From positions 13,306 through 77,305 of the forward strand of contig CAZWKQ010000012.1 of NCBI GenBank assembly GCA_964634005.1: 64,000 nucleotides of DNA, given 5' to 3'. The notes under the pieces are model-generated. The model did not search any database, was not told the DNA's origin, and saw only the letters and a program-made list of their open reading frames with translations. Source of the stretch: an uncultured Bacteroides sp. Lineage in GTDB: Bacteria; Bacteroidota; Bacteroidia; Bacteroidales; JACABE01. Position numbers and translations under genes: made by a program. This document shows, one piece after another, positions 5,442 to 64,000 of the stretch (positions within the stretch are counted from its first letter, which is position 1; each line of letters starts with the position of its first letter).

Positions 5442-5465
5442 ATATTTTTATTAAACTAATTAATA

Positions 5466-5473
5466 CAAAAATA
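5466..5473 (-). promoter_or_regulatory. Bacteroidota sigma-A -7 element (TATTTTTG) upstream of the kinase gene
   Basis: Exact match to TAnnTTTG about 25 nt upstream of the ATG. The motif is short and AT-rich, so chance matches are possible. Confidence 0.5.
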
Positions 5474-5502
5474 GTAAAATAAATTCAACTTTCACGTCAA
5501 TA

Positions 5503-6273: not shown

Positions 6274-6306
6274 TATATTTTTTCTAATTGCAATTTTTCC
6301 AACTAA

Positions 6307-7248: not shown

Positions 7249-7256
7249 ATTTTTTT

Positions 7257-7910: not shown

Positions 7911-7923
7911 TATTTTAAAATAA

Positions 7924-9048: not shown

Positions 9049-9051
9049 TAC

Positions 9052-9435
9052 TTAAATCTTTAACAACTTATTTATTTCTCTTTGTAACTGATCAGAACGT
9101 ATGCCTTTATCCATGTATAAATCAGCCTTTATCCATTTACGTTCTTCTTCCGAATGAACGTCGAAACTCATGCCGGTTTCGGCTGTTACGGCTGTTGCAA
9201 TTATTATGGGTACATCAGGATACTTCCTCTTCATTTTATAACTTAAAACGAAGCCGCTATCTTCATTCTCCATCATCAAATCGAAAATTGCCAAATCGGG
9301 TTTAAACGACTCCAAAAGTTGTTCAGCTTCATATTGACCATCTGCTGTTATTACTTCGAAACCTAATTTTTCTACTTTAAGTTTCATTTGATACAAGTAA
9401 TCCATGTCATCGTCAACAATTAAAACCTTTTTCAT
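9052..9435 (-). CDS. Single-domain response regulator
   Basis: VDDD, FDLMM, TAV, DKG; no output domain. Confidence 0.9.
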   Translation of the reverse strand: MKKVLIVDDDMDYLYQMKLKVEKLGFEVITADGQYEAEQLLESFKPDLAIFDLMMENEDSGFVLSYKMKRKYPDVPIIIATAVTAETGMSFDVHSEEERKWIKADLYMDKGIRSDQLQREINKLLKI

Positions 9436-9472
9436 ATTTTTATTTTATTAAAATTTATTTTCATTCATTTTA

Positions 9473-9480
9473 CAAAGTTA
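9473..9480 (-). promoter_or_regulatory. Internal -7 promoter element (TAACTTTG) upstream of the receiver gene
   Basis: TAnnTTTG match overlapping the hydrogenase-kinase stop codon, about 37 nt upstream of the ATG at 9435. Confidence 0.45.
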
Positions 9481-11466: not shown

Positions 11467-11487
11467 ATTTATTTTCTTTTTTTGATA

Positions 11488-12249
11488 TTAATTAAAAGCT
11501 CCCTGCAGATAACTTTTTGTTTTTTCCATTTTCGGATTTTCAAAAATCTCATCGGCAGGTCCTTGTTCTACAACTTCACCCATATACATAAAAACAACAT
11601 GATCGGCAATCCTTCTTGCCTGACGGAGAATATGAGTAACTAAAACAATAGTATATTGCTGTTTCAATTCAACAAATTTCTTTTCAATAACTTCGCTCGA
11701 AATAGGATCTAAAGCTGAAGTCGGTTCGTCGGCAAGGATAATCTCGGGATCGACAGCCAAACCACGTGCAAGGCACAAACGCTGCTGCTGTCCTATTGAC
11801 AGTTTGGAAGCAGGTTCGTGAAGTCTGTCATGAACTTCATCCCAAAGACTTACAATTTTCAAATAGTTTTCAACTCTTGCACTTAAAGCTTTTTTGTTTC
11901 TTCTTCCGCTAATTTTCAATCCGTAAGCAACATTATTAAAAATATTCATCGGCAAGGGATATGGTCTTTGCGAAAGCAATCCCATCTTCTTTCTTATCTC
12001 AGTTACATCGGTTTTTGTATTTAAAATATCTTCATTGTCAATCAAAATATTTCCGCTTATTTTAGCATCGTGATACAAATCGGTCAATCGGTTAAGACAT
12101 TTTAAAAGCGTAGTTTTTCCGCAACCTGATGGACCTAATATAACTGTAAGCTTATTCTCAGGAATTTCTATATTAATATTTTTCAGAATATGTTGTTTCC
12201 CTATGAAAAAATTTAGGTTATCGATTTTTATTTTAGCGTTGCTTGTCAT
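11488..12249 (-). CDS. pstB: Phosphate ABC transporter ATP-binding protein
   Basis: Walker A GPSGCGKT, LSIGQQQRLC, ADEPTSALDP. Start reassigned to the ATG at 12249, just after the pstA stop. Confidence 0.93.
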   Translation of the reverse strand: MTSNAKIKIDNLNFFIGKQHILKNINIEIPENKLTVILGPSGCGKTTLLKCLNRLTDLYHDAKISGNILIDNEDILNTKTDVTEIRKKMGLLSQRPYPLPMNIFNNVAYGLKISGRRNKKALSARVENYLKIVSLWDEVHDRLHEPASKLSIGQQQRLCLARGLAVDPEIILADEPTSALDPISSEVIEKKFVELKQQYTIVLVTHILRQARRIADHVVFMYMGEVVEQGPADEIFENPKMEKTKSYLQGAFN

Positions 12250-12250
12250 G

Positions 12251-13099
12251 TTATTGTATTCTGTTTTTATAATATTTTTTTGATAATGCTCTTGAAAATA
12301 CACTAATAATCAGTATTATAATAGTTAAAATAGCTGCACTGGCATAAGCACGGTTTTGAACTTCAGGTACAGGCGAACTGAGTTGGAAAAAGATAGATAA
12401 AGGCAGAGTAGCAGCAGGTTCGAGCAAAGAAGTCGGAATATTATCGGTATATCCTGCAGTAAACAGCACTGATGCTGCATCTCCAATCGCACGTCCGAAT
12501 GAAAGTAATATTGCAGTTACTATTCCCGAAAACGACTGAATAAGAACTACTCTGAACGAAGTTTCTGTTTTTGTTGAACCTAACGAAAAAGCTGCTTCGA
12601 GTAAGCCAACAGGAGTTGTTTTCAGAACTTCGTCACAAGCCCTTATCATTATTGGTAAAACAAACAAAGTAACAGTGATAATACCAGCCAATAACGAAGT
12701 TTTTATTCCCAGAAAAACCATTAATCCAAAACCAAAAGCTCCATAAACTATTGAAGGAACACCCCATATTAAATCGAGTAAAAACCTGAAAAAGTTTAAA
12801 AAGCGTTTGTATTTTATTAGATAAACATTCATAAATAAGGCTACAGGAACGCCTATAACAGTAGCAAGAAAAGTCGCTCCGACTGAAAGATATAATGAAC
12901 CTATTATTGCATTGAGTACACCGCCTTGTTTACCGTAATAATAGCCACCTTGAGGCTTCTGAGTAAGCATTTCCCATGAAAGCGAACTTAATCCCTTTTT
13001 GAAAATACTATAAATGATTAAAAGCAATACAAATAGTATAATCAAATTGCTAAACAACATTAAACCCCTGAAAAAATACTCTTCAATCTTTTTTAACAT
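12251..13099 (-). CDS. pstA: Phosphate ABC transporter permease
   Basis: GVPSIVYG, EAAFSLGST, SFGRAIGD, ATLP. Confidence 0.92.
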   Translation of the reverse strand: MLKKIEEYFFRGLMLFSNLIILFVLLLIIYSIFKKGLSSLSWEMLTQKPQGGYYYGKQGGVLNAIIGSLYLSVGATFLATVIGVPVALFMNVYLIKYKRFLNFFRFLLDLIWGVPSIVYGAFGFGLMVFLGIKTSLLAGIITVTLFVLPIMIRACDEVLKTTPVGLLEAAFSLGSTKTETSFRVVLIQSFSGIVTAILLSFGRAIGDAASVLFTAGYTDNIPTSLLEPAATLPLSIFFQLSSPVPEVQNRAYASAAILTIIILIISVFSRALSKKYYKNRIQ

Positions 13100-13107
13100 C
13101 TCTAAAA

Positions 13108-14004
13108 TCAGTATTTATCGTATCTAATTATAATCATTCTCATTATAGCATTAAAAAACATAACAACTACAAACAAAATTAAAGCAGCAAACATAAGAGC
13201 AGCATCATAATGTGGAATAGATAACATTTCCCCATAGTTATTGGCAATCAAAGCAGGTAATGGATAACCACCGTCAAAAACATTTTTCGGAATTTGGACA
13301 ATATTTCCAACTACCATAAGTACTGCTATTGTCTCTCCAAATGCACGCGCGAAGCCGAAACCAATAGCAGCCATAATTCCGGGCAATGCCTTTTTAACGA
13401 GAACAAACTTAATCGTTTGCCATTTAGTTGCACCCAATGATAATGAAGCTTCTGTCAACTCTATCGGTATTGCTCTGAAAATTTCAATGAGAATATTCAG
13501 AATAAACGGTATAATCATTACCGCTAAAACCAAACCCCCTGCTAATATACTGTACCCCATGGTATTTGCTCCAAAAACAGGTGCTATAACGTTCGAGATA
13601 AATGGGACTATTACTATTACACCCCATACACCATAAACAACCGATGGAATACCGGCCAATATATCTATTACGGGATGAATTATCTTTAAATAAAACTTTT
13701 TTGAATACTGTGTTATTGAAAGAGCAGCGAAAATGCATATAGGAGCCGAAATTACCATTGCCAAAGCAGTAACCCATACCGAACCCATAATAAACGGGAA
13801 AAAGCCAAACTCTTGACTGCTCGGACGCCATACTTTTGAAAACAATAATTTCCCTAACGAATTATCTCTAAATAACATATCAGATTTATAATACAATCCG
13901 GCTCCAAGAATAAATGGCATCAACAACACCACTAATGATGCTATAACCATCCATGCAGTACTTATTCTGTTTTTAGTTTTTCTGTTATAAAATAATACTA
14001 TCAT
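13108..14004 (-). CDS. pstC: Phosphate ABC transporter permease
   Basis: LAGIPSVVYG, EASLSLGATKWQT, RAFGETIAV. Confidence 0.93.
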   Translation of the reverse strand: MIVLFYNRKTKNRISTAWMVIASLVVLLMPFILGAGLYYKSDMLFRDNSLGKLLFSKVWRPSSQEFGFFPFIMGSVWVTALAMVISAPICIFAALSITQYSKKFYLKIIHPVIDILAGIPSVVYGVWGVIVIVPFISNVIAPVFGANTMGYSILAGGLVLAVMIIPFILNILIEIFRAIPIELTEASLSLGATKWQTIKFVLVKKALPGIMAAIGFGFARAFGETIAVLMVVGNIVQIPKNVFDGGYPLPALIANNYGEMLSIPHYDAALMFAALILFVVVMFFNAIMRMIIIRYDKY

Positions 14005-14044
14005 TAATACTTATTAGCTGATAATTAGTAATTTATGTTAACAT

Positions 14045-15034
14045 TTATTTTAATTTTTCAATTTCACTTTTCACTCTTTCATCAGAAAGTTTAACATAAC
14101 CTGCCTCATTAACATATTTTTGTCCGTCAGTCAATACCCATAAAATAAAGTTTCTTACGAGCGATTTCTTTGGAGTTCCCTGAGAAACAAAATACAAAGC
14201 CCTTGAAGGCGGAGACGGATAAACTCCATCTCTGATGGCATTCATTATATCATCAAGAGTTTCATAAACCATTTCTTCTTTATCAATTTTGCCGTTTGAA
14301 TTTATATCAATCGGAACTACATCAATACCTTGATATTTCTTACGTGTATTAATGTCATAAACATAGGCAATATTGTTAAACCCTATACCATTTATATCTT
14401 TTCTTACAGCATCGGCTACACCCGGATCTCCATTTACTCCTATACCTTTAATATCTTCTTGTTTTTTATTTTTTAAAAACTTTGCCCACATTTCGGCAGC
14501 TCCGCAAGCATCAGATCTGGTATAAACATTTATTGGTGAGTTATTTGTAGTTTTATACAACCAACCCCATTTTCTGTAATTTCCTGTAATAAATATCTCA
14601 TAAAAATCATTTTGCTTTAATCCTTTTTCTTTCAAATCTTTCATTATTGGATTTTTTTCATTTACCGTAGCTAAAACAGCATCTTTTGCAACAGCAACAA
14701 ACCAAGCACCTTTTTGCTTTTCTTCATCGCTGATTTCTTTTGAAAACATCCCTAAATCGACCATTTCCGAAAGTGCATCTGTCATTCCTTTTCCGGCTCC
14801 ACCGGCAGATACATTGATTGTAACTTTAGGATGTAGTTTCTGATATTCCTCAGCCCACCTGACTGTCAATGGATAAAGAGCAAATGCTCCCGAAATACTT
14901 ATAGTACCCGATAAACTATCTTTGCCGTCAGTTGATTTATTTGAGCCATTATTGCACGAAAATAACGACATCGACAAAATCAATGTTACTAAAGTAAGCA
15001 CATTTAATGTTTGTTTGATACAATTGGTTTTCAT
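14045..15034 (-). CDS. pstS: Phosphate ABC transporter substrate-binding lipoprotein
   Basis: Lipobox LFSC; SGAFALYP, GGAGKG, YTRSDACG, YP...R.LY. Confidence 0.9.
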   Translation of the reverse strand: MKTNCIKQTLNVLTLVTLILSMSLFSCNNGSNKSTDGKDSLSGTISISGAFALYPLTVRWAEEYQKLHPKVTINVSAGGAGKGMTDALSEMVDLGMFSKEISDEEKQKGAWFVAVAKDAVLATVNEKNPIMKDLKEKGLKQNDFYEIFITGNYRKWGWLYKTTNNSPINVYTRSDACGAAEMWAKFLKNKKQEDIKGIGVNGDPGVADAVRKDINGIGFNNIAYVYDINTRKKYQGIDVVPIDINSNGKIDKEEMVYETLDDIMNAIRDGVYPSPPSRALYFVSQGTPKKSLVRNFILWVLTDGQKYVNEAGYVKLSDERVKSEIEKLK

Positions 15035-15085
15035 TTTATTTATCTTTTTATTTTTTATAATTATTTAACTTATTATTTTTCAATA

Positions 15086-16804
15086 TTATAAAACCTCTCT
15101 TCTTCTAAAATCAGTATATAACATATTTTTGTTGTTTTCTGAAATGTTGAAAAAATTTTGATAAATTTCGTTTACCAAAGGATTTTTATGAGCAAACTTT
15201 ATCGATTCTTTATCATCAACATCATAAATAGCTTTGATTCGCGATTTTACAGCTTCTTTGTTTGAAGGAATAGGTTGTCCGCCACCATTAATGCAACCAT
15301 TTTGACATGACATTACTTCTACAAAATGTATATCATTCCTGCCATTTTTAATCTCATTTATAATTTTTTCGGCATTAATAATATCGCTGACAACAGCAAC
15401 ACCTATATTATAATTTTGAGTTTTAAGAACAAACTCTTTCCTGTTTTTATTTATGGTTCTTAATTCAGTAATTTTATAATTAACCATATCAGAATTATTG
15501 ATAATATAGTAGAGCGTTCGTAAAACAGCTTCGGTGACTCCACCCGATGCAGCGTACAATTTCCCCGAAGAGCTTCGTGTTCCTAAAGCAGCATCTGATA
15601 ATTCCGATTCGATATTCATTAAATCAATTCCGTAAAGCCTTATTAATCGTGCCAACTCTCTTGTAGTAAGGACTGCATCAACATCGGTTATACCTTTATG
15701 GGTCATTTCTTCACGCTGAGCTTCAAATTTTTTAGCAATGCAAGGCATAATGGAAACATTATATATATTTTCGGGCATAAATGATTTGCTTTCGGAATAA
15801 TAGTTTTTAACAAGCATACCCATTATTTGCTGCGGTGATTTTACTTTTGACAAATTTCCGATCATTTCAGGGTGAGTTTGCTCAACATATTTAACCCAAG
15901 CAGGACAGCAACTTGTGAATAAAGGTAAGTTTTCGCCCTTATTTATTCGGTTTAACAATTCATTTGCAACTTCAATTGCGTTAATATCGGCACCTAAGCT
16001 TGCATCGAATACTTTGTGAAATCCAATTTTTCGTAATGCAGCATTGAGCATTCCGTTTATATCTTTACCTGCTTTGATTCCGAATTCTTCGGCAAGTGAT
16101 ACTGTAATAGAGGGGGAATAACTTATTACAACATGTTTATTGGGATTATTTAATGAATCTATTGTTTCAGGTAAATGATCTCTTTCGTAAAGAGCACCAG
16201 TAGGGCAAACCATAATACACTGACCGCAATTTATGCAACTCGATAGATTGATTCCTTTTTCACAAGCAGTAGTAATTTCGCAATATTTGCCTTTCTTAAT
16301 GAAATCAATAGCAGTAACTCCGACAATTTCCTCACATACCCTGACACACCTTCCGCACAAAATGCACTTTTTGGGGTCACGTATCATGCATGAGCCTGAC
16401 CTGTCGGCTTTTTGATTACCTTTTCTTCCGCTTATTCTTCTTTCAAGAACATTTAATTCAATGGCTAACTTTTGTAATTCGCAATTGCCGTTACGTTCAC
16501 AATAAAGACAATCGTCAGGATGATTTGATAACAAAAGTTCAACAATAGTTTTTCGGGCTTTAATTACTTTGGGAGAATGTGTTTTTATCCTCATCCATTC
16601 TTCTACCTGTTGAGAACAACTTGGTACAAGATTCTCATATCCTTCAACTTCTACTGCACAAATTCTACAGGCACCGGATGGAGTAAGGTCTTCCATAAAA
16701 CATAGTGTAGGAACTTTTATTCCATTCCTGTTTAAAGCCATTAAAATAGTTTCACCTTTTTTGGCTTTAATTATTTTATTATTTACTTCTATATCAAATA
16801 CCAT
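15086..16804 (-). CDS. hydA: Group A [FeFe]-hydrogenase H-cluster subunit (HydA/HndD-like), divergent
   Basis: [2Fe-2S], His-ligated [4Fe-4S] (HPDDCLYC...C) and two [4Fe-4S] F-clusters; H-cluster motifs TSCCPAW, MPCIAKKFE and EVMSCQNGCINGGGQP. Confidence 0.92.
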   Translation of the reverse strand: MVFDIEVNNKIIKAKKGETILMALNRNGIKVPTLCFMEDLTPSGACRICAVEVEGYENLVPSCSQQVEEWMRIKTHSPKVIKARKTIVELLLSNHPDDCLYCERNGNCELQKLAIELNVLERRISGRKGNQKADRSGSCMIRDPKKCILCGRCVRVCEEIVGVTAIDFIKKGKYCEITTACEKGINLSSCINCGQCIMVCPTGALYERDHLPETIDSLNNPNKHVVISYSPSITVSLAEEFGIKAGKDINGMLNAALRKIGFHKVFDASLGADINAIEVANELLNRINKGENLPLFTSCCPAWVKYVEQTHPEMIGNLSKVKSPQQIMGMLVKNYYSESKSFMPENIYNVSIMPCIAKKFEAQREEMTHKGITDVDAVLTTRELARLIRLYGIDLMNIESELSDAALGTRSSSGKLYAASGGVTEAVLRTLYYIINNSDMVNYKITELRTINKNRKEFVLKTQNYNIGVAVVSDIINAEKIINEIKNGRNDIHFVEVMSCQNGCINGGGQPIPSNKEAVKSRIKAIYDVDDKESIKFAHKNPLVNEIYQNFFNISENNKNMLYTDFRRREVL

Positions 16805-16829
16805 TTCTTAAACTTTGAAAATATATTGA

Positions 16830-18773
16830 TTATTTAATATAAATTGCACTGAATTTACATGTTTCGAAACATATACCACAACCTATACATTTGCTTTCGA
16901 CAATAAAGTGAGGATATTTAACAGTTCCAATAATAGCATTAACCGGACATTTTCGCATACAAGCATTGCAGCCGGTACATTTTTCTACATCTATATAAAA
17001 AGTTCTTAATTCTTTACAAACACCTGCCCTGCATTTTCTATCGAAGATATGTTCTTCATATTCATCTCTAAACCACTTAAGTGAACTTAAAAAAGTATTA
17101 GCTGCATTTTTTCCTAAACCGCAAAGTGATGTATCTTTAATAACATCGGCAATATTTTCGAGTTGCATTACGCCTTTAAATCTGTCTAAGGTTTGATGTG
17201 AAGTTTCATCTTTAGGAATTTTAGTAATCTTTTCGATTATCTCATACATTCGTTGAGTTCCTTCACGACAGGGAATACACTTTCCACAACTTTCGTGTTG
17301 TATGAAATTTAAGTAAAACTTAGTCAAATCAACCATACAGGTATCTTCATCCAAAACAACAATACCTCCCGAACCCATGAAAGTTCCGGCATTCTTCAAT
17401 TCATCATAATCTATCGTTAAATTAAGATTTTGTTCAGTAATAAAACTACCTGCCGGACCTCCTAACTGTATTGCTTTAAATTTCTTATTATTTTTTAGTC
17501 CCCCTCCTATATTTTCAACAATTTCTGCCAATGTCTTACCCATTTCAACTTCTATCAATCCGTGATTTGCAATTTTTCCGGAAAGAGAAAGAATTTTGGT
17601 TCCTTTGCTGTTTTGTGTACCAATATTTGTAAACCATACAGGACCATTATTAATAATATTCGGAACATTTAGCAAAGTTTCCACATTATTTACAACTGTA
17701 GGCTTACCAAACAGTCCTTTTTCAGCGGGATATGGAGGCCTTGTTCTTGGCATTCCTCTTCTGCCTTCAATACTGCTCAACATAGCTGTTTCTTCCCCAC
17801 AAACAAATGCCCCCGGAGCTTTTTTTATAATTAAATCAAGATTAAATCCGCTATCGAGAATATTTTCACCTATTAATCCCAAATTTCTCGCTTGATTAAC
17901 AGCATTTTTAAGTCTTTCATAGGCTAAAATATTGTCGGAGCGAATATAAACATAAGCTTTGCTTGCACCAATTGCATAAGAGGCAATTGCTATACCCTCG
18001 ATTAATTTATGAGGATTACTTTCAATTAATATTTTCTCCATAAAAGAACCGGGGTCACTTTCATTCGAATTACATATCAAATATCTCTGGTCGGAAGCGG
18101 TTTCGTGTGCCAATTTCCATTTTTGACCCGTCGGGAAACCTGAACCTCCCCTACCCCTTAAGCCACTTTTACTTACAATACGACATACTTCATCAGATGT
18201 ATAATGATAAATCGATTTTACATAAGCTCTGTAACCGCCATTGGCTATAAATTCTTCTATTGATTCTGGATTAATAATACCGTTCAATTCAAGTAAAATT
18301 CTTTTTTGACCGGAGAAAAAAGGTAAATTTTCAATATTATTAATATTGTCCCACTTCTGAAGTTTTTTTTGATTATATTGTCCTATAACATTATCTGAAA
18401 CAATGTTGTTATTAAAAACACCGTCTAATATATTCGTAACCGATTCCGCATCGACATTTTTGAATGATATTCTGCATAATCCCGGCATCTGAACATCCAT
18501 AACAGGCTCTAAATGGCAAGCACCTATACACCCTACACTCACAACTTCGGCATCTATTTTCTTCTCTTTAAGATAAACATTTACGGCCTCTTTCGTTTTT
18601 AAAGCTCCGGCAGCTATACCGCAAGACGAGGTGCCTATATAAATTACAGGTTTTCTTACCGTTTCACGTTTAAGTTGTTTTATCATCTCATCCGCTTCTT
18701 TGCCGGCAGATGTTGTATCGTTTTGTAACACATTTTTAGTTAAAAACTTAATAATATTCTCCATAAAAATCAT
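16830..18773 (-). CDS. hydB: NuoF-like flavin/NADH subunit (HydB/HndC)
   Basis: Thioredoxin-like [2Fe-2S] N-terminus, GLRGRGGSGFPTG, GAFVCGEETA, CGKCIPCREG, LCGLG, two C-terminal [4Fe-4S] motifs. Confidence 0.92.
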   Translation of the reverse strand: MIFMENIIKFLTKNVLQNDTTSAGKEADEMIKQLKRETVRKPVIYIGTSSCGIAAGALKTKEAVNVYLKEKKIDAEVVSVGCIGACHLEPVMDVQMPGLCRISFKNVDAESVTNILDGVFNNNIVSDNVIGQYNQKKLQKWDNINNIENLPFFSGQKRILLELNGIINPESIEEFIANGGYRAYVKSIYHYTSDEVCRIVSKSGLRGRGGSGFPTGQKWKLAHETASDQRYLICNSNESDPGSFMEKILIESNPHKLIEGIAIASYAIGASKAYVYIRSDNILAYERLKNAVNQARNLGLIGENILDSGFNLDLIIKKAPGAFVCGEETAMLSSIEGRRGMPRTRPPYPAEKGLFGKPTVVNNVETLLNVPNIINNGPVWFTNIGTQNSKGTKILSLSGKIANHGLIEVEMGKTLAEIVENIGGGLKNNKKFKAIQLGGPAGSFITEQNLNLTIDYDELKNAGTFMGSGGIVVLDEDTCMVDLTKFYLNFIQHESCGKCIPCREGTQRMYEIIEKITKIPKDETSHQTLDRFKGVMQLENIADVIKDTSLCGLGKNAANTFLSSLKWFRDEYEEHIFDRKCRAGVCKELRTFYIDVEKCTGCNACMRKCPVNAIIGTVKYPHFIVESKCIGCGICFETCKFSAIYIK

Positions 18774-18779
18774 TATAGT

Positions 18780-19238
18780 TTATTGATTCTTTAAACTATC
18801 TATCAGCTCACGAATATCTCCAATTTTAACATTAGTATATGTATGGCCGTTTACTTCAATCACAGGCGATAAGCCACACGAACCCAAGCAACTGACCTGT
18901 TCGATACTAAACTGACCATCTCTGGTTGTTTGTCCGGCACTTATTTTTAGCTCCTTTTCCAACTCTTTTAAAATTACCGACGATTCGTTTAAATGACATA
19001 CCGTTCCATTACATATTTTAATGTGAAATTTACCGTTAGGTTTAAATTTTAAATTATTATAAAACGAAGCAATTCCATATACTTTCGATGATGCCAGATT
19101 AAAATACCTGCTGATTACCGAAATAGACTCTTCGGATAAATAACCCTCTTGCTCTTGAATTTCTGTCATTAAATCGATTAATCCACTTCTATCATCAGGT
19201 TTATACTTTCTTAATATCTCTTCAAAATTTATTCCCAT
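18780..19238 (-). CDS. hydC: NuoE-like [2Fe-2S] subunit (HydC/HndA)
   Basis: KVYGIASFY, ICNGTVCH, SCLGSCGLSP. Confidence 0.92.
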   Translation of the reverse strand: MGINFEEILRKYKPDDRSGLIDLMTEIQEQEGYLSEESISVISRYFNLASSKVYGIASFYNNLKFKPNGKFHIKICNGTVCHLNESSVILKELEKELKISAGQTTRDGQFSIEQVSCLGSCGLSPVIEVNGHTYTNVKIGDIRELIDSLKNQ

Positions 19239-19266
19239 AATTCGCGGAATTATTTTAATTTGTTTA

Positions 19267-19274
19267 CAAAAATA
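19267..19274 (-). promoter_or_regulatory. -7 promoter element (TATTTTTG) of the hydCBA operon
   Basis: TAnnTTTG match 28 nt upstream of the hydC ATG. Confidence 0.55.
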
Positions 19275-19288
19275 ACAGAACTTTTCGA

Positions 19289-19337
19289 TTTAACAATAAT
19301 TATTGTTAAAAAAATAACATTGTTATTTGCTTAACAA
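19289..19337. promoter_or_regulatory. Operator region: 22-bp perfect palindrome plus two tandem Rex-like boxes
   Basis: TTTAACAATAATTATTGTTAAA (19289-19310); TTGTTAA-AAAA-ATAACAT (19303-19320); TTGTTAT-TTGC-TTAACAA (19320-19337). Rex consensus is TTGTGAA-N4-TTCACAA. Confidence 0.65.
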
Positions 19338-55260: not shown

Positions 55261-55345
55261 TTCAGAATTTTATTTTGATTTCAAAAGTAATAAATAAATG
55301 AAAACCAAAATTTCTAAAACTTAGTTATCTTTGCTTAAAAAAAAT

Positions 55346-57412
55346 ATGTTTTCAGTTAAAATCAATCATAAAGAAAGTCTTTTAGTATTTATTTTTATTA
55401 TTTTTTTTTCGTCTGTATTTTCACAACCAAAAATTGATTCGTTAAGAATAGAGCTAAATAAAAGAAAAGGCAGCGACCGTATTCCAATACTTCACTCATT
55501 AGCATTACAGTTTTCGGTAAAAAAACCCGACTCGGCAATTAATTATGCCAAAGAAGCTATTTTTTTGTCGAATCTCTATAAAAAGGAAGATTCTATTGGA
55601 GAGCTTTATCAAATACTCGGTAAAAACTATAAAGAAAAAATTGATTTTAAATCATCTTTAAATTATTACACACTTGCTTTAGAAATTTATAAAAATCAGA
55701 AAAACAAAGAGAAAAAAATATCTGAATTATATAATTCGATGGGAATTATCTACGGTAAAATTTATAATTACGAAAGAGCCTTTTATTATTTCCATCTTGC
55801 CGTAAATAACATGTTGAAAAACAATGATTTCGACAGACTTCCTCCTATATTAAACAATATTGGACTTATTTATTTGCACATAAAAGATTACGAAAAAGCC
55901 AAAGAAAATTTTCTCCGAGCATTATATATTTCAAAATCAAATAATAATTTGGCATCAAGTGTATCATCTCTATTCAATTTATCGGCTCTTTATGATAATT
56001 TGGATAATCAAAAAATATCTCTAAAATATCAATTTGAAGCATTAGAAATTTGTATAAAATTGAAAGATACTCTAAAAACTGCAATTTCAAAATTGAATAT
56101 AGGAATTTTTTATAATAAGTTATCAGAGCCAAATACAGCAATAAAATACCTGAATGAGGCTCAAGAAATATTTGAGAAAAGCTCCGATGCTTATAAATAT
56201 TACCAAACCTATACACTTCAAAATCTTGGAAGTGCCTATTTAAAGCTTAAAGAAAATGATAAAGCTTATAATTATTTAAAACAGGCATATGATATTTCTG
56301 TAAAAATAAAAGATAACGGATGTATTAGAAATTCTTTTGAAAATTTTTCAAAATTTTATGAAAAAACAGGTGATTATAAAACTGCACTCGAATATTATAA
56401 AAAATACAAAAGTATAAATGATAGTATTTTTACAAAAGAAAACAGCGATAAAATCGCAGAAATGCAAGTAAGATACGAAACCGAAGAAAAGGAAAAAGAA
56501 AATGAAATTTTAAGACAAAAAAATACTATTCAACAATTAGCCATTCAAAAGCAAATTTACTTAAGAAACACATTTATTGCCGTTTCCGGCATTGTTATAT
56601 TGCTGATTGTTTTGGTTTTGTATCGCTTTTATATAAAAAAGAAAGCTAATAAATTACTTTCAGAAAAAAATAAGATGATTACAGAACAAAAAGAAAAGCT
56701 CGAACTGGCCAATGCAACAAAAGATAAATTTTTCACTTTGCTTGCCCATGATCTAAAAACGCCATTTTATGTTATTATGAAATATGCTCATTATCTGAAA
56801 CTTGAAATAGATAAAATGTCGATTAATGAAAGAGATGCAATAATTAATGAACTTAACGATTATACCGAGCATATTTACGGCTTACTCGAAAACTTGCTTA
56901 CATGGTCGCGTTCTCAAAGAGGTATGATACATTTAAAAAAAGAAATGCTTAATGTTGCAGAAATAGTCGAAGATTCAGCAAAAACGTACAGTTACGAACA
57001 ACAGACAAAAGAAATTAAACTAACAATAGAAATACCGGAAAATTTACTTATTTACGCTGATAAATACACCATAAAAACTGTAATAGGCAATATTTACAAC
57101 AATGCAATAAAATTTACAAATATAGGTGGTGAGATAAAAATAAATGCAACGAAAAACGTTAAAAATAATGTAGAGATTTTGATTTCGGATAACGGTGTCG
57201 GAATTGATGAAGACAAAATAGAGAGTCTATTCACCATTGGTGAAAGCTATTCAACAGAGGGAACGATGAACGAAAAAGGAACCGGCTTAGGGTTGATTAT
57301 TTGTAAAGAATTTATTGATTTAAACAATGGAGATATAAGAGTTGTTAGTAAAAAAAATGAAGGAAGTACTTTTATAATCGAATTACCATCAAAAACAGAG
57401 GATGAAAACTAA
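55346..57412 (+). CDS. TPR-sensor histidine kinase
   Basis: Signal/TM, periplasmic TPRs, TM, AHDLKTPF, NAIKFT, GTGLGL. Start set at ATG 55346 because a TATCTTTG -7 motif lies at 55326-55333. Confidence 0.9.
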   Translation: MFSVKINHKESLLVFIFIIFFSSVFSQPKIDSLRIELNKRKGSDRIPILHSLALQFSVKKPDSAINYAKEAIFLSNLYKKEDSIGELYQILGKNYKEKIDFKSSLNYYTLALEIYKNQKNKEKKISELYNSMGIIYGKIYNYERAFYYFHLAVNNMLKNNDFDRLPPILNNIGLIYLHIKDYEKAKENFLRALYISKSNNNLASSVSSLFNLSALYDNLDNQKISLKYQFEALEICIKLKDTLKTAISKLNIGIFYNKLSEPNTAIKYLNEAQEIFEKSSDAYKYYQTYTLQNLGSAYLKLKENDKAYNYLKQAYDISVKIKDNGCIRNSFENFSKFYEKTGDYKTALEYYKKYKSINDSIFTKENSDKIAEMQVRYETEEKEKENEILRQKNTIQQLAIQKQIYLRNTFIAVSGIVILLIVLVLYRFYIKKKANKLLSEKNKMITEQKEKLELANATKDKFFTLLAHDLKTPFYVIMKYAHYLKLEIDKMSINERDAIINELNDYTEHIYGLLENLLTWSRSQRGMIHLKKEMLNVAEIVEDSAKTYSYEQQTKEIKLTIEIPENLLIYADKYTIKTVIGNIYNNAIKFTNIGGEIKINATKNVKNNVEILISDNGVGIDEDKIESLFTIGESYSTEGTMNEKGTGLGLIICKEFIDLNNGDIRVVSKKNEGSTFIIELPSKTEDEN

Positions 57413-60212: not shown

Positions 60213-60220
60213 TATTTTTG
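60213..60220 (+). promoter_or_regulatory. -7 promoter element (TATTTTTG) of the chemosensory operon
   Basis: TAnnTTTG match 14 nt upstream of the STAS gene ATG. Confidence 0.5.
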
Positions 60221-60234
60221 AGAAAAAATCAAAA

Positions 60235-60570
60235 ATGAAGAAAAATAACATATCTATTCTTCCCATTGACGATGATAATAAACGTAAGGTTCAGATTATT
60301 ATTGAAAATGACGCCAATATCATAACTGAAGATTATTTTTATAATACTTTCAATGAAATTTTCGATAATTTTGATTATTTTTATATTAAATTAGTCAATA
60401 TCGAAACTTTCGATCTGTCTTTTCTTCAATTGCTGATTTCTATAAAAAAAACTATAAGTAAAACTAATAAATCAGTCGAATTTGAATTGAATTTACCTGA
60501 TAACATAAAAACAGTTTTAAGTAACTCGGGAGTAGATATTAATAGTTTGTTTGAAATAAAAAATAATTAG
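60235..60570 (+). CDS. STAS-domain protein (chemosensory-associated)
   Basis: ETFDLSFLQLLISIKK resembles the STAS 'DxSGlQLL' motif; sits before cheY-cheA. Confidence 0.75.
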   Translation: MKKNNISILPIDDDNKRKVQIIIENDANIITEDYFYNTFNEIFDNFDYFYIKLVNIETFDLSFLQLLISIKKTISKTNKSVEFELNLPDNIKTVLSNSGVDINSLFEIKNN

Positions 60571-60580
60571 ATTTCCATAT

Positions 60581-60943
60581 ATGAAAACAATTTTATTTGT
60601 TGACGACCACGCAAGTATCAGAGAATTAGTCAAAGATGTACTAACGCAAAAAGGATTTGATGTTTTATTAAGTAATGACGGAGAAGACGCAATAAAACTT
60701 TTCGACGGACGCAATATCGATCTTTTAATCACCGACTTACATATGGAAAAAATGAATGGTATTGAACTTACAAAAGAAATCAGGAAAAATTCTGACTATA
60801 AACATATACCAATAGTAGTATTAACCACAGAATCTCAAGTTGAAAAGAAAATTGAGGCTAAGAATGCAGGTGCTACAGGCTGGATAGTAAAACCTTTTGA
60901 TGCCGAAAATTTATTGAAGGTTGTAAACAAATTAATTCGTTAG
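60581..60943 (+). CDS. cheY: Chemotaxis response regulator CheY
   Basis: VDD, ITDLHM, LTTES, GATGWIVKPF. Confidence 0.9.
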   Translation: MKTILFVDDHASIRELVKDVLTQKGFDVLLSNDGEDAIKLFDGRNIDLLITDLHMEKMNGIELTKEIRKNSDYKHIPIVVLTTESQVEKKIEAKNAGATGWIVKPFDAENLLKVVNKLIR

Positions 60944-60950
60944 AAGAATA

Positions 60951-61313
60951 ATGAAAACGATACTAATTGTCAATGACTCTGATATTATCAATAAAATAAT
61001 ATCAAGATCGCTGGAGAAAGAAGGTTTTAAAACAGTAGTAGCCATAAACGGGAAAGAAGCACTTGAATTGTTAGATAAATTTGAATTTCATATAGTTATA
61101 ACCGATGTAAATATGCCTGAAATGGATGGAATTGAGCTTACCAAAAAAATCAGAGAACATAAAAACTATAAATTTATACCGGTAATATTCTTATCGGGTT
61201 CGGAAGAACCCGAAATGCTCAAAAGAGCAAAAGAAGCAGGTTCTTCGGCATGGCTTACACTGCCATTCAATGTTAAAACAGTAGTTGCAACCATTAATAA
61301 ATTTTTGAGATAA
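60951..61313 (+). CDS. Second, atypical CheY-like receiver
   Basis: VND, ITDVNMP, LSG, WLTLPF (conserved Lys replaced by Leu). Confidence 0.85.
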   Translation: MKTILIVNDSDIINKIISRSLEKEGFKTVVAINGKEALELLDKFEFHIVITDVNMPEMDGIELTKKIREHKNYKFIPVIFLSGSEEPEMLKRAKEAGSSAWLTLPFNVKTVVATINKFLR

Positions 61314-63346
61314 TGGAAAACTACACCGAGAAGTTCAAAGAGGAAGCCATAGATTTTATCAACGAGCTTGAAGAAGCTCTTTTAGTTCTTGAGTTTAATC
61401 CCGAAAACAAAGAACAAATTGCTTTAATTTTCAGGGTTATGCACTCTTTGAAAGGTGCCGGTGCTATGTTTGGTTACGATAAAATAAGCGACTTTACTCA
61501 TAATCTCGAAACATTATACGATTTTATTAAAACAGATAGACTTCCTATAACAAAAAATATATTCGATTTAACACTTCAATCAGTTGATATTCTTCACGCA
61601 CTTCTTGAAAATCAAGAGCTTGATAACCCTGTATTAATCAACCTTTACAACAAAATCACAAAAGAAATTGAAGAAATTATTGCATCAGTTGACAATAATT
61701 GGAATAATAGAACTAAGATCCAACAAATTAATTTCAATAAAACAGAATTAGAACATTATTCTACATACTTCATTACTTTTATACCCGATAAAAACATCCT
61801 GAAAAATGGCACTAACCCCCTTTATCTCATTGATGAGCTATCGAGCATGGGTAAAACTGCCATTTTTATTCATTATGAAAATATTCCCGACTTGAAAATG
61901 TACGAACCATCTTCATGTTATGTATGGTGGGAATTACTTTTAGCTACAAATCAAAGCGCCGAAGATGTCAGAAATGTTTTCATTTTTGTTGAAGATGATT
62001 GCCGACTCGAAATAAATGTCATCTCAGACACAAATCTATTGGATGATTCAGAATTTGTCAGTTCATTTAAAAATCAAAAAAAAGAAGTAAAAATTACTGA
62101 TATTGAACAAATTAAAACATATATTGAAAACTATCACAACGAAAAAGAAGAAAAAAACAAAAAGCTTAATCAAAAATTAATAAAAGATACCGGAATAAAC
62201 AGCATAAGAGTTTCTACACATAAATTGGATGAAATGCTGAAAATTGTTTCCGAATTGATAACAGTACAGTCAAAACTGACTACTTTCTCGGATAACCTTA
62301 AAAACTCAGAACTTTCTGCAATTTCTGAAAGTGTAACAAAAATTACAAAACAACTAAGAGATAATGCTTATAAAATATCACTTATACCGGTAAATACCCT
62401 AACCATTCGTTTCCAACGACTTGTTAGGGACTTATCCGTCGAACTCGGCAAAGAAGCTGTTTTTGAATCAATCGGAGGTGAAACAGAACTGGATAAAAAA
62501 ATTGTCGAACTAATCACCGACCCCATACTACATATTATCCGCAATTCACTCGATCATGGAATTGAAAGTAAAGAAGAACGAATAAAAAAAGGTAAATCAC
62601 CACGCGGAAAAATAAGACTGAAAGCTTATTACAACGGAGCAAACGTAATTATTCAAATAAAAGATGATGGCAAAGGTATTGATACCGAATTTATAAGAAA
62701 GAAAGCAATAGAAAAAGGTTTTGTAAAACCTGAAGTTATTTTAGGGAAAAGAGATATTTTAAATTTTCTTTTTTTACCGGGCTTTTCAACCGCTGATAAA
62801 GTAACCGAAGTATCAGGAAGAGGTGTTGGTATGGATGTGGTTAGGAAAAATATTAATGAAATAAGAGGTGAAATTGAAATTGATTCTGTAGTTGATAAAG
62901 GAACTACCATAACATTAAAACTACCTTTAACACTTTCTATAGTCGATGGATTATTAGTATTAGTCGATAAAACAACTTTTCTTGTACCACTTACTGCAAT
63001 ACATAAAATTTATGCCATCAAACATCAATTAATTGAAAATAATTATTACCAACTTCTTGTTCTTGACGGAAATCAGATTCCTTATATTTATCTCAGAAAC
63101 AATTTTGGAATGGATAGTACTGAAAAAAACGATACTGAATTTGTTCTTGTAATTCAATACGAAAATCGAAAAGTAGGTCTAATCGTTGATAAAGTTTTAG
63201 GTGAATTTCAGGCGGTTGTAAAACCTTTGGGTAAGCTGTTCAATTTTCAGGAAAGCATATCAGGAGCAACTATTTTAGGCGATGGAAATCTCGCTTTGGT
63301 AATTGATACCAATAAAACAATACAGAAATTTTCAAGTGTTATTTAA
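61313..63346 (+). CDS. cheA: Chemotaxis histidine kinase CheA
   Basis: HPT FRVMHSLKG, P2-like region, IRVS..KLD dimerisation, HIIRNSLDHG, SGRGVGMDVV, C-terminal CheW domain. Confidence 0.96.
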   Translation: MENYTEKFKEEAIDFINELEEALLVLEFNPENKEQIALIFRVMHSLKGAGAMFGYDKISDFTHNLETLYDFIKTDRLPITKNIFDLTLQSVDILHALLENQELDNPVLINLYNKITKEIEEIIASVDNNWNNRTKIQQINFNKTELEHYSTYFITFIPDKNILKNGTNPLYLIDELSSMGKTAIFIHYENIPDLKMYEPSSCYVWWELLLATNQSAEDVRNVFIFVEDDCRLEINVISDTNLLDDSEFVSSFKNQKKEVKITDIEQIKTYIENYHNEKEEKNKKLNQKLIKDTGINSIRVSTHKLDEMLKIVSELITVQSKLTTFSDNLKNSELSAISESVTKITKQLRDNAYKISLIPVNTLTIRFQRLVRDLSVELGKEAVFESIGGETELDKKIVELITDPILHIIRNSLDHGIESKEERIKKGKSPRGKIRLKAYYNGANVIIQIKDDGKGIDTEFIRKKAIEKGFVKPEVILGKRDILNFLFLPGFSTADKVTEVSGRGVGMDVVRKNINEIRGEIEIDSVVDKGTTITLKLPLTLSIVDGLLVLVDKTTFLVPLTAIHKIYAIKHQLIENNYYQLLVLDGNQIPYIYLRNNFGMDSTEKNDTEFVLVIQYENRKVGLIVDKVLGEFQAVVKPLGKLFNFQESISGATILGDGNLALVIDTNKTIQKFSSVI

Positions 63347-63358
63347 ATAAAAAACGAA

Positions 63359-63856
63359 ATGAGCGAAGAAAATTTGATAAACGGAAGTTATTTATCATTC
63401 AGAATAGGGAGCACTTTCTTTTGTGTTAATATCGAAAAAGTACTGAACGTAATTGAGTTAATGAATATAACAAAAGTCCCACATTCACCCGAATATATGT
63501 TGGGAGTTTTAAATCTTAGAGGTGAAGTACTACCGGTAGTTGATTCAAGAATAAAATTCGGCTTTCCGGTTACCGAAAACACAATGAAAACTTGTATAAT
63601 TGTTCTTGATATATTATTGCAAAACGAAAAAATTCATATCGGAATGCTTGTAGATGAAGTTTTTGAAGTATTTGAGAAAAATGACGAAGAAATTTTACCT
63701 CCCCCTGCCTTAGGAAATAAATTCAAATCCGAATTTATAAAAGGAGTTTTCAAATCGAATGAGCAATTTGTTATGTTTATTGATATCGACAAAGTATTCT
63801 CTTCGGATGAATTAGTTACAGTAAATGATTTAGGAAAAGATGTTATGAATAATTAA
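63359..63856 (+). CDS. cheW: Chemotaxis coupling protein CheW
   Basis: ITKVPHSP.YMLGVLNLRG, GMLVDEV. Confidence 0.95.
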   Translation: MSEENLINGSYLSFRIGSTFFCVNIEKVLNVIELMNITKVPHSPEYMLGVLNLRGEVLPVVDSRIKFGFPVTENTMKTCIIVLDILLQNEKIHIGMLVDEVFEVFEKNDEEILPPPALGNKFKSEFIKGVFKSNEQFVMFIDIDKVFSSDELVTVNDLGKDVMNN

Positions 63857-63866
63857 AATTATCCTT

Positions 63867-64000
63867 ATGAAATTCAACGATATTCGCATTTCAACAAAAT
63901 TGGTAATCGGTTTTTCAACAATAATGTTGACAGCAGGGCTGTTCTCATTTTATTGCTGGACGCAAATTAAAAATCTTCATAAATTATCAAAAGCTAATGA
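63867..64000 (+). CDS. N-terminus of a probable methyl-accepting chemotaxis protein (truncated by window)
   Basis: MKFNDIRISTKLVIGFSTIMLTAGLFSFYCWTQIKNL..., the 'I..KL..GF' + TM1 pattern typical of MCPs, directly after cheW. No stop codon before the window end. Confidence 0.7.
   Translation, partial: MKFNDIRISTKLVIGFSTIMLTAGLFSFYCWTQIKNLHKLSKAN

Follow-up and report, generated by a model that had tools for sequence, protein, structure and literature searches.

A sole chemosensory operon with a His-less HisKA/HATPase protein in a non-flagellated Bacteroidales bacterium

Introduction

Chemosensory (Che) genes at the end of a 64,000-nucleotide stretch of DNA from an uncultured Bacteroidales bacterium of anaerobic digesters (the whole stretch is hereafter called the window) raise the question of what such a pathway controls in this host. 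An earlier note, made from the letters alone, read positions 60235-64000 as the start of a STAS-CheY-CheY-CheA-CheW-MCP operon with a non-flagellar output, and held that Bacteroidota generally lack flagella and classical Che systems. The latter is overstated: an ortholog is present in 98 of 301 genomes and 78 of 209 genera sampled across the order, and other classes of the phylum are flagellated and have Che systems. Our literature search found no paper on the Che system of any Bacteroidia.

A complete operon in a host without flagella or pili

The host has a complete, transcribed chemotaxis-type signalling operon and neither flagella nor pili. All open reading frames of the proposed operon start were recovered on the + strand (Table 1), and inspection of the downstream sequence, which the note had recommended, added CheR, CheD and CheB on contig C12. 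The operon comprises ten genes (STAS, CheY1, CheY2, CheA, CheW, MCP, CheR, a HisKA/HATPase protein devoid of the phospho-accepting His and hereafter called the His-less protein, CheD, and CheB), separated by gaps of 12 nt or less or overlapping. Pfam matches of all the products place the core CheA, CheW, CheY, CheR, and CheB within this single contiguous cluster. The GC content of the operon is around 30%, against 31% for the contig and the genome, in line with the AT-rich, host-like composition described before. The Bacteroidota-type promoter proposed for the operon has a candidate -7 element, a motif that occurs around 0.83 times per kb per strand and of which around 0.04 copies are expected in the 53-nt spacer before the operon; a -33 TTTG was not found. 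Metatranscriptome contigs run across the operon without errors.

Table 1. Features of the operon in the window and beyond its end (positions of the window, or of contig C12 where indicated)
Feature	Position	Strand	Evidence or remark
Candidate Bacteroidota -7 promoter element TATTTTTG (TAnnTTTG)	60213..60220	+	Consensus match only; 15 nt 5' of first ATG
STAS-fold protein, 111 aa (orf111), operon gene 1	60235..60570	+	RsbV profile match, AF2, Foldseek
CheY1, canonical single-domain receiver	60581..60943	+	Pfam Response_reg 3.6e-30
CheY2, diverged receiver	60951..61313	+	Pfam Response_reg 6.2e-26
CheA, 677 aa	61313..63346	+	Pfam Hpt, H-kinase_dim, HATPase_c, CheW; NCBIfam CheA models 369-393 bits
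CheW, 165 aa	63359..63856	+	Pfam CheW 8.9e-33
MCP, 618 aa, start in window	63867..64000	+	Pfam; end at C12:79028
CheR, past window end	C12 78979-79896		Pfam
His-less HisKA/HATPase protein, 299 aa, past window end	C12 79901-80800		Pfam HATPase_c 9.5e-26
CheD, past window end	C12 80797-81291		Pfam
CheB, past window end	C12 81301-82365		Pfam

The genome is 97.3% complete and 1% contaminated, and it has no match to FHIPEP (FlhA), to flagellin (Flagellin_N), or to the T2SSE ATPase of PilB/PilT type, which supports the non-flagellar output that had been proposed. F-class Che systems associate with the flagellum, whereas neither FHIPEP nor Flagellin_N is present here. FHIPEP was also missing from the four other Bacteroidia carriers examined (the FlhA check among Bacteroidia carriers covered 5 genomes). 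The suggested search for gld genes retrieved GldM, GldJ, and GldB, all above curated cut-offs, and a GldK-like gene adjoins gldM. Since gliding genes are common in environmental Bacteroidia with or without che, they are weak evidence for the output. As to the input, the H2-sensing relay put forward as its source found no support: relay and operon co-occur in the window, more than 40 kb apart and in separate transcription units.

Receptors and class of the system

Searches with blastp revealed a single CheA and a single CheW in the genome, and two MCPs, both dCache, are encoded outside the operon, which brings the receptors to three. The operon MCP has two transmembrane segments, a periplasmic region, a HAMP domain, and a 34H signalling domain, and lacks a PAS domain. 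At its C-terminus, a linker of around 45 aa leads to the terminal pentapeptide EYERF, which is conserved across the clade. All three receptors are 34H, having 7 residues (one heptad) fewer per arm than Tar (36H), a call that is made by length relative to Tar and that we applied to these MCPs and to the cluster MCPs of the CheA clade and its sister clade. The CheA lies inside a 29-member clade made entirely of Bacteroidia (SH-aLRT 99), which is sister to the 36H/E. coli F7 side of the tree. The cluster MCPs of this clade and of the sister clade are all 34H with an x[FY]xx[FY] tail, and those of the clade on the E. coli side are 36H with an xWxxF tail.

Receptors of the 34H type have been tied to the F8 class (PMC9321776, PMC11253619), the criteria of which are given by Wuichet and Zhulin (2010) and MiST. 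Because the receptors are 34H and the CheA groups beside the F7 clade, the system appears to be F8-like, an assignment that draws on receptor length and tree position. The F8 systems of model organisms (P. syringae pv. tomato cluster II/CheA1, R. leguminosarum Che2, and B. diazoefficiens che3), whose function is poorly understood there too, share with it the core cheY-cheA-cheW-cheR-cheB and have their own 34H receptor(s). The F8 receptor PSPTO_0912 carries a C-terminal pentapeptide like the operon MCP. However, the hosts of these systems are flagellated and have other Che systems, whereas the present host has this system only and lacks a flagellum. In addition, the Bacteroidia version has a STAS gene in first position, CheD, and the His-less protein.

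The gene order is nearly identical to that of the stage 1 F7 systems of V. cholerae (cluster III) and M. alcaliphilum (Ortega et al. 2020, PMC7184735), whose ancestral order is anti-sigma antagonist, cheY, cheA, cheW, receptor, cheR, cheD, cheB. This agrees with the F7/F8-type order recognized in the earlier note. The stage 1 F7 clusters of gamma-proteobacteria have no flagellar control (PMC7184735). They are always found alongside an F6 flagellar system, whereas the genome studied here has a single CheA and no second system. They also differ in having 36H Aer2-like soluble receptors instead of a 34H transmembrane MCP, in lacking the extra His-less kinase, and in carrying an mcpA-like receptor, a second STAS gene, and a Ser phosphatase downstream, where the operon has no PP2C gene and, in the four closest relatives, ends with cheB, the next gene being convergent.

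STAS protein, receivers, and output

CheY1 has a complete active site (DD, D52, T, K, and the aromatic W in the alignment with E. coli CheY) and is 75-79% identical in the four closest genomes. In CheY2, the same alignment shows Asn at the first acidic residue (D12 equivalent) and Leu/Met at the conserved Lys (K109 equivalent), and both substitutions are kept across the five closest genomes. The product of the first gene is not called as STAS by Pfam or NCBIfam when searched alone (STAS_2 E=0.021). A profile of its 17 orthologs, which are encoded upstream of cheY in 17 loci, matches RsbV from end to end (E 3.5e-6, profile vs PDB). Its AF2 model (pLDDT 87.9) has RsfB, RsbV, and SpoIIAA as top Foldseek matches (TM 0.65-0.70), and the orthologous first genes in the genomes G243 and G363 are matched by Pfam STAS. 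While the fold is common to the SpoIIAA/RsbV antagonists, these have DS[ST]G with a phosphorylatable Ser after the Asp, and here this canonical phospho-Ser is replaced by Leu (D60-L61-S62; family motif D-[LIM]-[STAP]-[FASVC]-x-Q), which the profile alignment places on the Ser of RsbV. The degenerate CheY2, the absence of a phosphorylatable Ser from the STAS protein, and the His-less protein had gone unmentioned in the earlier note.

A non-flagellar output is argued from the commonness of the operon (98/301) and from its coexistence with a separate flagellar Che system in flagellated classes. Among the carriers outside Bacteroidia, FlhA is present in 8 out of 8, and the five whose second CheA we fetched (G125, G281, G004, G349, and G272) have this CheA as a separate one. 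Four of these five proteins fall in the non-F7/F8 half of the tree, and flhA is 20-30 kb away from the gene of the second CheA in G125, G281, and G004. The phosphorylated CheY1, possibly with the STAS protein and CheY2, would act on a target other than the flagellum or the type IV pilus, and our best guess for this target is the T9SS/gliding machinery.

The main alternative is a STAS-mediated partner switch acting on gene expression or another enzyme instead of motility, which we regard as possible but not likely. An output of this kind has been proposed for ancestral F7 systems, namely Shewanella Che1 (RpoS control) and V. cholerae cluster III. A conserved STAS gene heads the operon in all lineages, the versions of flagellated classes among them, the stage 1 F7 clusters bear anti-sigma antagonists and a Ser phosphatase, and a link between Shewanella Che1 and the regulation of RpoS has been described (PMC9855816). 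In G243 and G363, PP2C genes also border the che cluster, but G363 has 51 of them, and the adjacency there may be due to chance. A switch of this kind is difficult to reconcile with a STAS protein lacking the phosphorylatable Ser beside the conserved Asp. The usual gene neighbours of such antagonists are missing as well: no RsbW/SpoIIAB-type kinase and no RsbU-type (PP2C) phosphatase is encoded in or beside the operon, and the two PP2C proteins of the genome belong to other modules, in contexts unrelated to che. The end of the operon at cheB in the closest relatives also speaks against it, and a full adaptation set accompanied by a tethering pentapeptide would be more usual in a pathway for gradient sensing.

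The His-less protein

The eighth gene encodes a protein with the DHp-CA architecture common to the HisKA kinases HK853, CrdS, and EnvZ and to the pseudokinase DivL. In the AF2 model, helices 3-72 and 78-110 are followed by an alpha/beta domain and a disordered tail. The alignment with HK853 (E 5e-30) is gapless across the H-box and pairs N56 with H260 and N60 with T264. Asn stands in place of the phospho-accepting His in each of the 137 sequences examined (17/17 orthologs from the loci and 120/120 relatives from the database), and the Asn at His+4 is invariant in the same two sets. The protein has the phosphatase T/N residue and the N, G1, F, and G2 boxes of the kinases, the boxes being intact and conserved. 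Unlike the kinases, it lacks the phospho-accepting His and a sensor domain, having an N-terminal coiled coil only, and is encoded inside che operons. A pure phosphatase role leaves the conserved ATP-binding site unexplained. The tail, which is predicted to be disordered, is conserved and acidic, and its last residue is an invariant Phe. In 16 of the 17 loci, including one from Campylobacterota, the gene immediately precedes cheD, which it overlaps by 4 bp in the operon described here.

In histidine kinases, the T/N at His+4 is needed for phosphatase activity only and the His is dispensable (PMC3510030). Accordingly, the half-life of the phosphorylated response regulator is 2.6 min with CrdS H371A and 53.5 min without enzyme, and HK853 T264A has lost its phosphatase activity (same reference). 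PleC is a counter-example, as it is no longer active as a phosphatase once the His is lost.

Because its canonical His is gone and the His+4 Asn is kept, the His-less protein probably stands in for CheC by dephosphorylating CheY~P, and would thereby switch the signal off. No match to CheC/CheX/FliY (PF04509) or CheZ (PF04344) was found in G000, G243, and G363, and control genomes were matched. The arrangement can be likened to that of CheC-CheD in Bacillus subtilis and Thermotoga maritima, where the gene of a CheY~P termination factor is found beside cheD. The catalytic logic of CheC, CheX, and CheZ is E-x-x-N, and the His-less protein has N-E-I-x-N-P. The tail of E. coli CheZ (...DDLLDSLGF) is acidic and Phe-ended like that of the His-less protein. 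However, the latter has a histidine-kinase fold and no kinship in sequence or fold to CheC/CheX or CheZ.

It is rather unlikely that the protein is instead a pseudokinase akin to DivL, binding CheY~P and relaying the output by way of either the ATP-binding domain or the C-terminal tail. The structural relatives include DivL (4q20, E 9.6e-20), which has Tyr for His, the protein has conserved ATP-binding boxes despite having no autophosphorylation site, and the disordered tail with its invariant Phe would suit such a relay. Yet the invariant His+4 Asn is phosphatase-specific, the position of the gene strictly next to cheD suggests the adaptation/termination branch and not the output, and no conserved downstream partner adjoins the gene. 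Even less probable is an active kinase, with the phospho-acceptor shifted to His49, that would provide a second input into CheY1 or CheB. His49 is 7 residues (one heptad) before the canonical site, on the same face of the same helix, it is invariant in the 120 closest Bacteroidales relatives, and the catalytic domain is intact. But the orthologs of Cytophagales, Flavobacteriales, and Arcobacteraceae have Gln, Met, Asn, or Arg at this position with all else kept, no His column is conserved family-wide, and the protein has no sensor domain.

Origin and distribution

The operon is typical of the host lineage and not a foreign insert. The gene order is conserved in loci of Bacteroidales, Cytophagales, Flavobacteriales, Chitinophagales, and Sphingobacteriales. 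The closest homologs, in Bacteroidales MAGs, have 62-64% identity and an identical ten-gene order. The earlier note had considered that the contig might be chimeric or the genome flagellated, and neither is the case. In three other metagenomes, contigs 35.7, 59.8, and 26.8 kb long extend from uvrA through the che genes with 0 differences, and this stretch was found in more than 20 runs from around 12 studies. Since three independent assemblies bridge the junction between housekeeping and che genes without differences, the contig is not chimeric. The phylogeny of CheA, proposed with Deltaproteobacteria or Spirochaetes in mind as donors, gave no sign of recent transfer. Che genes are missing from the well-known families of Bacteroidia and occur in only 4 of the roughly 65 genera sampled from the class, and two genomes of the host's own family are devoid of the operon. 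Even so, a foreign origin, be it by misbinning, by a chimeric assembly, or by recent transfer from flagellated Proteobacteria or Spirochaetes, is scarcely credible and was rejected given the linkage to uvrA, smpB, and type III glutamine synthetase in independent assemblies with 0 differences, the match in GC content, and the all-Bacteroidia CheA clade.

Proposed pathway and conclusions

Taken together, we consider it fairly probable that this is the sole, F8-like, lineage-typical Che pathway of a non-flagellated Bacteroidales bearing gliding genes, with a His-less phosphatase of CheY1~P and an output that is neither flagellar nor type IV pilus-based. In this pathway, the three 34H receptors would form an array with CheW and CheA, and CheA would phosphorylate CheY1. 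Adaptation of the receptors would involve CheR, CheB, and CheD, with CheR and CheB recruited through the terminal EYERF of the operon MCP. The His-less protein would not autophosphorylate at the canonical site and would serve as a dedicated CheY1~P phosphatase by means of its His+4 Asn. It would be translationally coupled to CheD and is its probable partner, a role that CheC has in Bacillus and Thermotoga.

A further reading, which we put forward as speculative and rather doubtful as a whole, is that HisKA/HATPase proteins with the His-to-Asn change form a new class of CheY~P phosphatases derived from a histidine kinase, docking through the Phe-terminated acidic tail and working with CheD in the manner of CheC, and that the F8-like pathway steers T9SS gliding in environmental Bacteroidales. 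This type of Che system is common in environmental Bacteroidales and yet unstudied. If the reading is true, the F8-like pathway would be the missing chemotaxis pathway for T9SS-driven gliding in these bacteria.

Layout of the operon

The earlier note had placed the start of a che operon at the end of the window, and its ORFs, all on the + strand, were found where it had put them (see the table). The window corresponds to C12:13306-77305. Beyond it, contig C12 carries the rest of the MCP gene, followed by cheR, the gene of a 299-aa HisKA/HATPase protein, cheD, and cheB. In total, the operon comprises ten genes that either overlap or are separated by at most 12 nt. It ends with cheB, as it does in the four closest relatives, where a convergent gene comes next. 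The genome, an assembly of 2.85 Mb in 50 contigs, has one copy of cheA, cheW, cheR, cheD, and cheB, and three MCP genes. The periplasmic region of the MCP encoded in the operon has no Pfam match, and the other two MCPs are tandem dCache receptors on contig C3.

Genes of the chemosensory operon lying within the window
Feature	Position	Strand	Basis
STAS-domain protein (orf111)	60235-60570	+	Family profile and predicted structure
Two receiver domains (CheY1 and CheY2)	60581-60943 and 60951-61313	+	Pfam
CheA: Hpt, dimerisation, HATPase_c, and CheW-like domains	61313-63346	+	Pfam
CheW	63359-63856	+	Pfam
MCP (618 aa on the contig)	from 63867, truncated at the window end	+	

The first gene had been called STAS from the sequence alone, and this call proved correct. 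When the single protein was compared with Pfam and NCBIfam there was nothing significant, the best match being STAS_2 (E 0.021). The profile of 17 orthologs (A1) aligns end to end with the anti-sigma-B antagonist RsbV (E 3.5e-6), and Pfam STAS matches the orthologous first genes of two other genomes. The AlphaFold model is confident (pLDDT 87.9), with RsfB, RsbV, and SpoIIAA as top structural matches (TM 0.65-0.70). The Ser that is phosphorylated in SpoIIAA and RsbV is replaced by Leu, and no RsbW- or RsbU-type partner was found near the operon.

The two receivers differ in their active sites. CheY1 is canonical, whereas in CheY2 the equivalent of D12 is Asn and that of K109, the invariant Lys, is Leu or Met, and both replacements are kept in the five closest genomes. 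Since the first acidic residue and the invariant Lys are replaced, CheY2 is unlikely to be an ordinary phospho-receiver. Another Bacteroidales lineage (loci L007-L009, L028, and L031) has two canonical CheYs instead.

A candidate -7 element (TAnnTTTG) lies 15 nt upstream of the first ATG, in a spacer where about 0.04 chance motifs are expected; no -33 element was found upstream of this ATG. Two genes upstream of the operon and on the same strand (55331-57412), the window encodes a sensor kinase with TPR repeats, a single TM segment, HisKA and HATPase domains, and a canonical His; we found no evidence linking it to the Che system.

Integrity and transcription of the locus

One concern was that the contig could be chimeric or misbinned. 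The assembly is 97.3% complete and 1% contaminated, and the GC content of the operon matches that of the genome, in agreement with the host-like composition described earlier. A 3.7-kb stretch was found near-identical in more than 20 metagenomes of digesters, biogas reactors, sludge, and hot springs, from around 12 studies. Three of these runs, one of which may be the source sample of the assembly, yielded contigs (35.7, 59.8, and 26.8 kb) that link uvrA, the TPR kinase, smpB, the type III glutamine synthetase gene, and the che genes with 0 differences. The operon is thus tied to housekeeping genes, and the finding stands.

Metatranscriptome contigs without differences tile the operon at a depth similar to that of the adjoining glnA, which is consistent with transcription in situ, but the contigs of these RNA libraries may also be DNA carry-over. 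One such contig (60183-60790, run X25) begins 2 nt past the glnA stop, upstream of the predicted -7 box, and extends into cheY1; it could result from glnA read-through or from DNA carry-over.

An F8-like system with the layout of an ancestral F7 cluster

The closest CheAs are those of four Bacteroidales MAGs (62-64% identity), where the order of the ten genes is identical. At 40-49% identity come proteins of Cytophagales (Agaribacillus, Reichenbachiella, Chryseolinea) and of MAGs of Flavobacteriales, Chitinophagales, and Sphingobacteriales. In a quick LG+G4 tree of 94 CheA sequences, there is an all-Bacteroidia clade of 29 members (SH-aLRT 99). Its sister clade (97) unites CheAs of Colwellia, Denitrovibrio, and a Desulfovibrionaceae MAG with those of systems found in flagellated classes of this phylum; two of these systems (in genomes G125 and G004) were confirmed to start with STAS-cheY-cheA. 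The E. coli F7 CheA is on the side of the Bacteroidia clade (98). Five flagellar CheAs were fetched from the phylum: four of them (G125, G281, G004, G349) are on the opposite side, together with the F1-like CheAs, and the fifth (G272) forms a long branch that is unplaced within the F7/F8 side.

Compared with E. coli Tar, a 36H receptor, every cluster MCP of the Bacteroidia and sister clades is exactly one heptad shorter per arm and is therefore 34H. The MCPs of the clade on the E. coli side have no indel relative to Tar, and this clade is therefore 36H. In the literature, 36H receptors are paired with F7 and 34H receptors with F8 (34H-F8: PMC9321776, PMC11253619). Membership in F7 was consequently rejected, as the receptors are 34H and not 36H. 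The genes are nevertheless arranged as in the stage 1 ancestral F7 clusters of gamma-proteobacteria (PMC7184735). Hence, we describe the system as F8-like in class, judged from receptor length and the tree, and as stage-1-F7-like in layout. The F7/F8 assignment of the earlier note was largely right. The MCPs encoded in the operons have a conserved C-terminal pentapeptide, [DE]-[YF]-E-[RKS]-F (EYERF in the window's genome), and the F8 cluster of P. syringae likewise has a 34H receptor with a pentapeptide.

Some other clusters differ in content. In the sister clade, there is a protein of the metallo-beta-lactamase/ODP family (di-iron, oxygen-binding) between the receptors (L086:10701-11369, in G125, from a flagellated class) and a REC-PAS-HisKA hybrid kinase 3' of cheB, which suggests an oxygen or redox input in these clusters. 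The class Bacteroidia also has Che-like systems of a second kind: in two loci (L092 in G155, L093 in G335), a long-branched and very different CheA (544-563 aa) adjoins an MCP-like protein of 1376-1480 aa, a CheW, and a receiver. Both genomes are from non-flagellated Bacteroidia and have no GldJ above the cut-off.

A kinase look-alike lacking the phospho-accepting histidine

The 299-aa protein encoded between cheR and cheD (C12:79901-80800, around 2.6 kb past the window end) is named in databases 'sensor histidine kinase' or 'HAMP domain-containing histidine kinase'. Yet, Asn replaces its phospho-accepting His, within a motif, F-[IL]-S-N-I-x-N-E-I-x-N-P, present in all 17 locus orthologs and in 120 of the 120 closest database clusters. 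The alignment with HK853 of T. maritima is gapless at this motif and matches Asn56 with His260, Glu57 with Glu261, and Asn60 with Thr264. The N, G1, F, and G2 boxes are intact. In the predicted fold, a long coiled coil leads into a DHp hairpin, after which come a CA domain and a disordered tail.

According to Willett and Kirby, the T/N at position His+4 of HisKA domains is the sole residue required only for phosphatase activity, and HK853 T264A has lost this activity (PMC3510030). The His itself is largely dispensable for it: RR~P decays with a half-life of 2.6 min when CrdS H371A is present, compared with 0.7 min for the wild-type protein and 53.5 min in the absence of enzyme (PMC3510030). 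The gene is immediately upstream of cheD in 16 of 17 loci, one of them an Arcobacteraceae cluster with 36H receptors, and in the window's genome its ORF shares 4 bp with that of cheD. Searches for CheC/CheX/FliY and CheZ in this genome and two others (G243 and G363) found none. The family ends with a conserved acidic tail that is predicted to be disordered, ...NE.FF[DT].[DE]..[IVTK]F, whose terminal Phe is invariant. E. coli CheZ has a similar C-terminus (...DDLLDSLGF), and some members of the His-less family end with DFEKF, which matches the MCP pentapeptide. From the motifs and the gene context, we infer that the protein is a dedicated CheY~P phosphatase standing in for CheC beside CheD. A caveat to this reading is His49, one heptad upstream, which is invariant in the Bacteroidales subgroup and varies in the wider family.

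Two further observations concern the distribution of this gene. In the Arcobacteraceae MAG (Campylobacterota, L046:8794-10130), where the receptors of the che cluster are 36H, cheD is directly preceded by the gene of a HisKA protein with the His-to-Asn change, and the pairing is therefore not limited to Bacteroidia or to 34H systems. In Pedobacter and Ginsengibacter MAGs (L014, L030), the STAS gene and CheD are kept, the kinase look-alike is missing, and the cluster CheY lacks the equivalents of T87 and K109. This single co-variation is compatible with the look-alike acting on a phosphorylatable CheY.

Distribution in the phylum and the order

In the phylum-wide sample, where uncultured families are under-represented, 111 of 401 genomes have CheA, yet among the roughly 65 Bacteroidia genera sampled there are just 4 with it. 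We rejected the reading of this frequency as rarity, since orthologs were found in 98 of the 301 genomes (33%; 78 of 209 genera) of a family-balanced sample drawn evenly from the order, often in two or three copies. The rarity of Che systems in Bacteroidota had thus been overstated. Two genomes of the window's own family (G492 and G617) have no CheA ortholog, so that the operon is patchy even inside the family, which implies either frequent loss or gain. Given these counts, the system is common but patchy in environmental Bacteroidales. Cultured carriers are Tenuifilum thalassicum, Reichenbachiella agariperforans, and Agaribacillus aureus. The first has a full cluster coding for a 102-aa ORF, REC, CheA, CheW, CheR, the His-less protein, CheD, and CheB.

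FlhA is absent from the five Bacteroidia carriers tested and present in the eight tested from other classes. From five of the latter (G125, G281, G004, G349, and G272) we fetched a separate, second CheA, located 20-30 kb from flhA in the first three. Because these five FlhA-positive carriers hold a separate CheA and the Bacteroidia carriers tested lack FlhA, the ortholog is presumably a second, non-flagellar pathway where flagella exist, and the sole pathway kept where they are missing. The situation parallels that of F7 and F6 in gamma-proteobacteria (PMC7184735).

Output of the pathway

Neither FHIPEP (FlhA) nor the flagellin N-domain was found in the genome, and control genomes gave the expected matches, so the finding stands. 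The proposal of a non-flagellar role was largely right: this 97.3% complete genome has neither a flagellum nor a T2SSE ATPase. The full adaptation set, with its tethering pentapeptide, is consistent with the sensing of temporal gradients. GldM, GldJ, GldB, and a GldK-like gene are present in this genome, as in G243 and G363, which makes gliding a possible target; gld genes are widespread and their presence is weak evidence. The conserved STAS gene is consistent with a partner-switch output, and we rank control of gliding or the T9SS slightly ahead of it. A PP2C partner switch was rejected for this genome, where both SpoIIE-domain proteins sit in other modules. Type IV pili were also rejected, since no PilB/PilT-type (T2SSE) ATPase scored above the cut-off, with control genomes matching as expected.

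Of the two phosphatase modules, one (C15:17895-21142) starts with a 949-aa protein in which TPR repeats and a TM segment are combined with a PP2C domain and a kinase-like C-terminus; the next gene encodes a 132-aa product that is DUF1987/SiaC-like by eye. This pair may constitute a partner switch of the SiaABC type that has no relation to the che operon. The other (C6:10488-13540) encodes a 620-aa hydrogenase-like Fe-S protein with a PAS-like region, directly followed by a 394-aa PP2C phosphatase, and may be a second putative H2/redox-sensing relay, the domains of the Fe-S protein being assigned by eye. The earlier suggestion that the operon receives input from an H2-sensing relay is unsupported, as nothing ties it to the H2-sensing cluster at 4311-19337.

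Significance

The analysis confirmed the observation, and its interpretation was largely right on class and on the non-flagellar role. Standard annotation pipelines can recognise the che genes, and systems of this class are already catalogued. Literature searches on Che systems of Bacteroidetes/Bacteroidota found no paper that treats one in the class Bacteroidia, and there was likewise no relevant study of che operons with a His-less HisKA protein or of Tenuifilum. The model glider Flavobacterium johnsoniae is not known to carry che genes.

The His-less protein is a natural kinase-dead HisKA with the phosphatase motif intact, and its conservation extends over more than 120 sequence clusters. 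Should it prove to be a CheY~P phosphatase, it would make up for the lack of CheC, CheX, and CheZ in these systems, and a widespread mis-annotation would be corrected. A complete, adaptation-capable chemosensory pathway is present in about a third of the sampled Bacteroidales genomes, with no flagellum in the five tested, which bears on how gliding Bacteroidota bias their movement. Since cultured carriers exist, the question is directly testable, and Tenuifilum thalassicum could be a model organism for the system.
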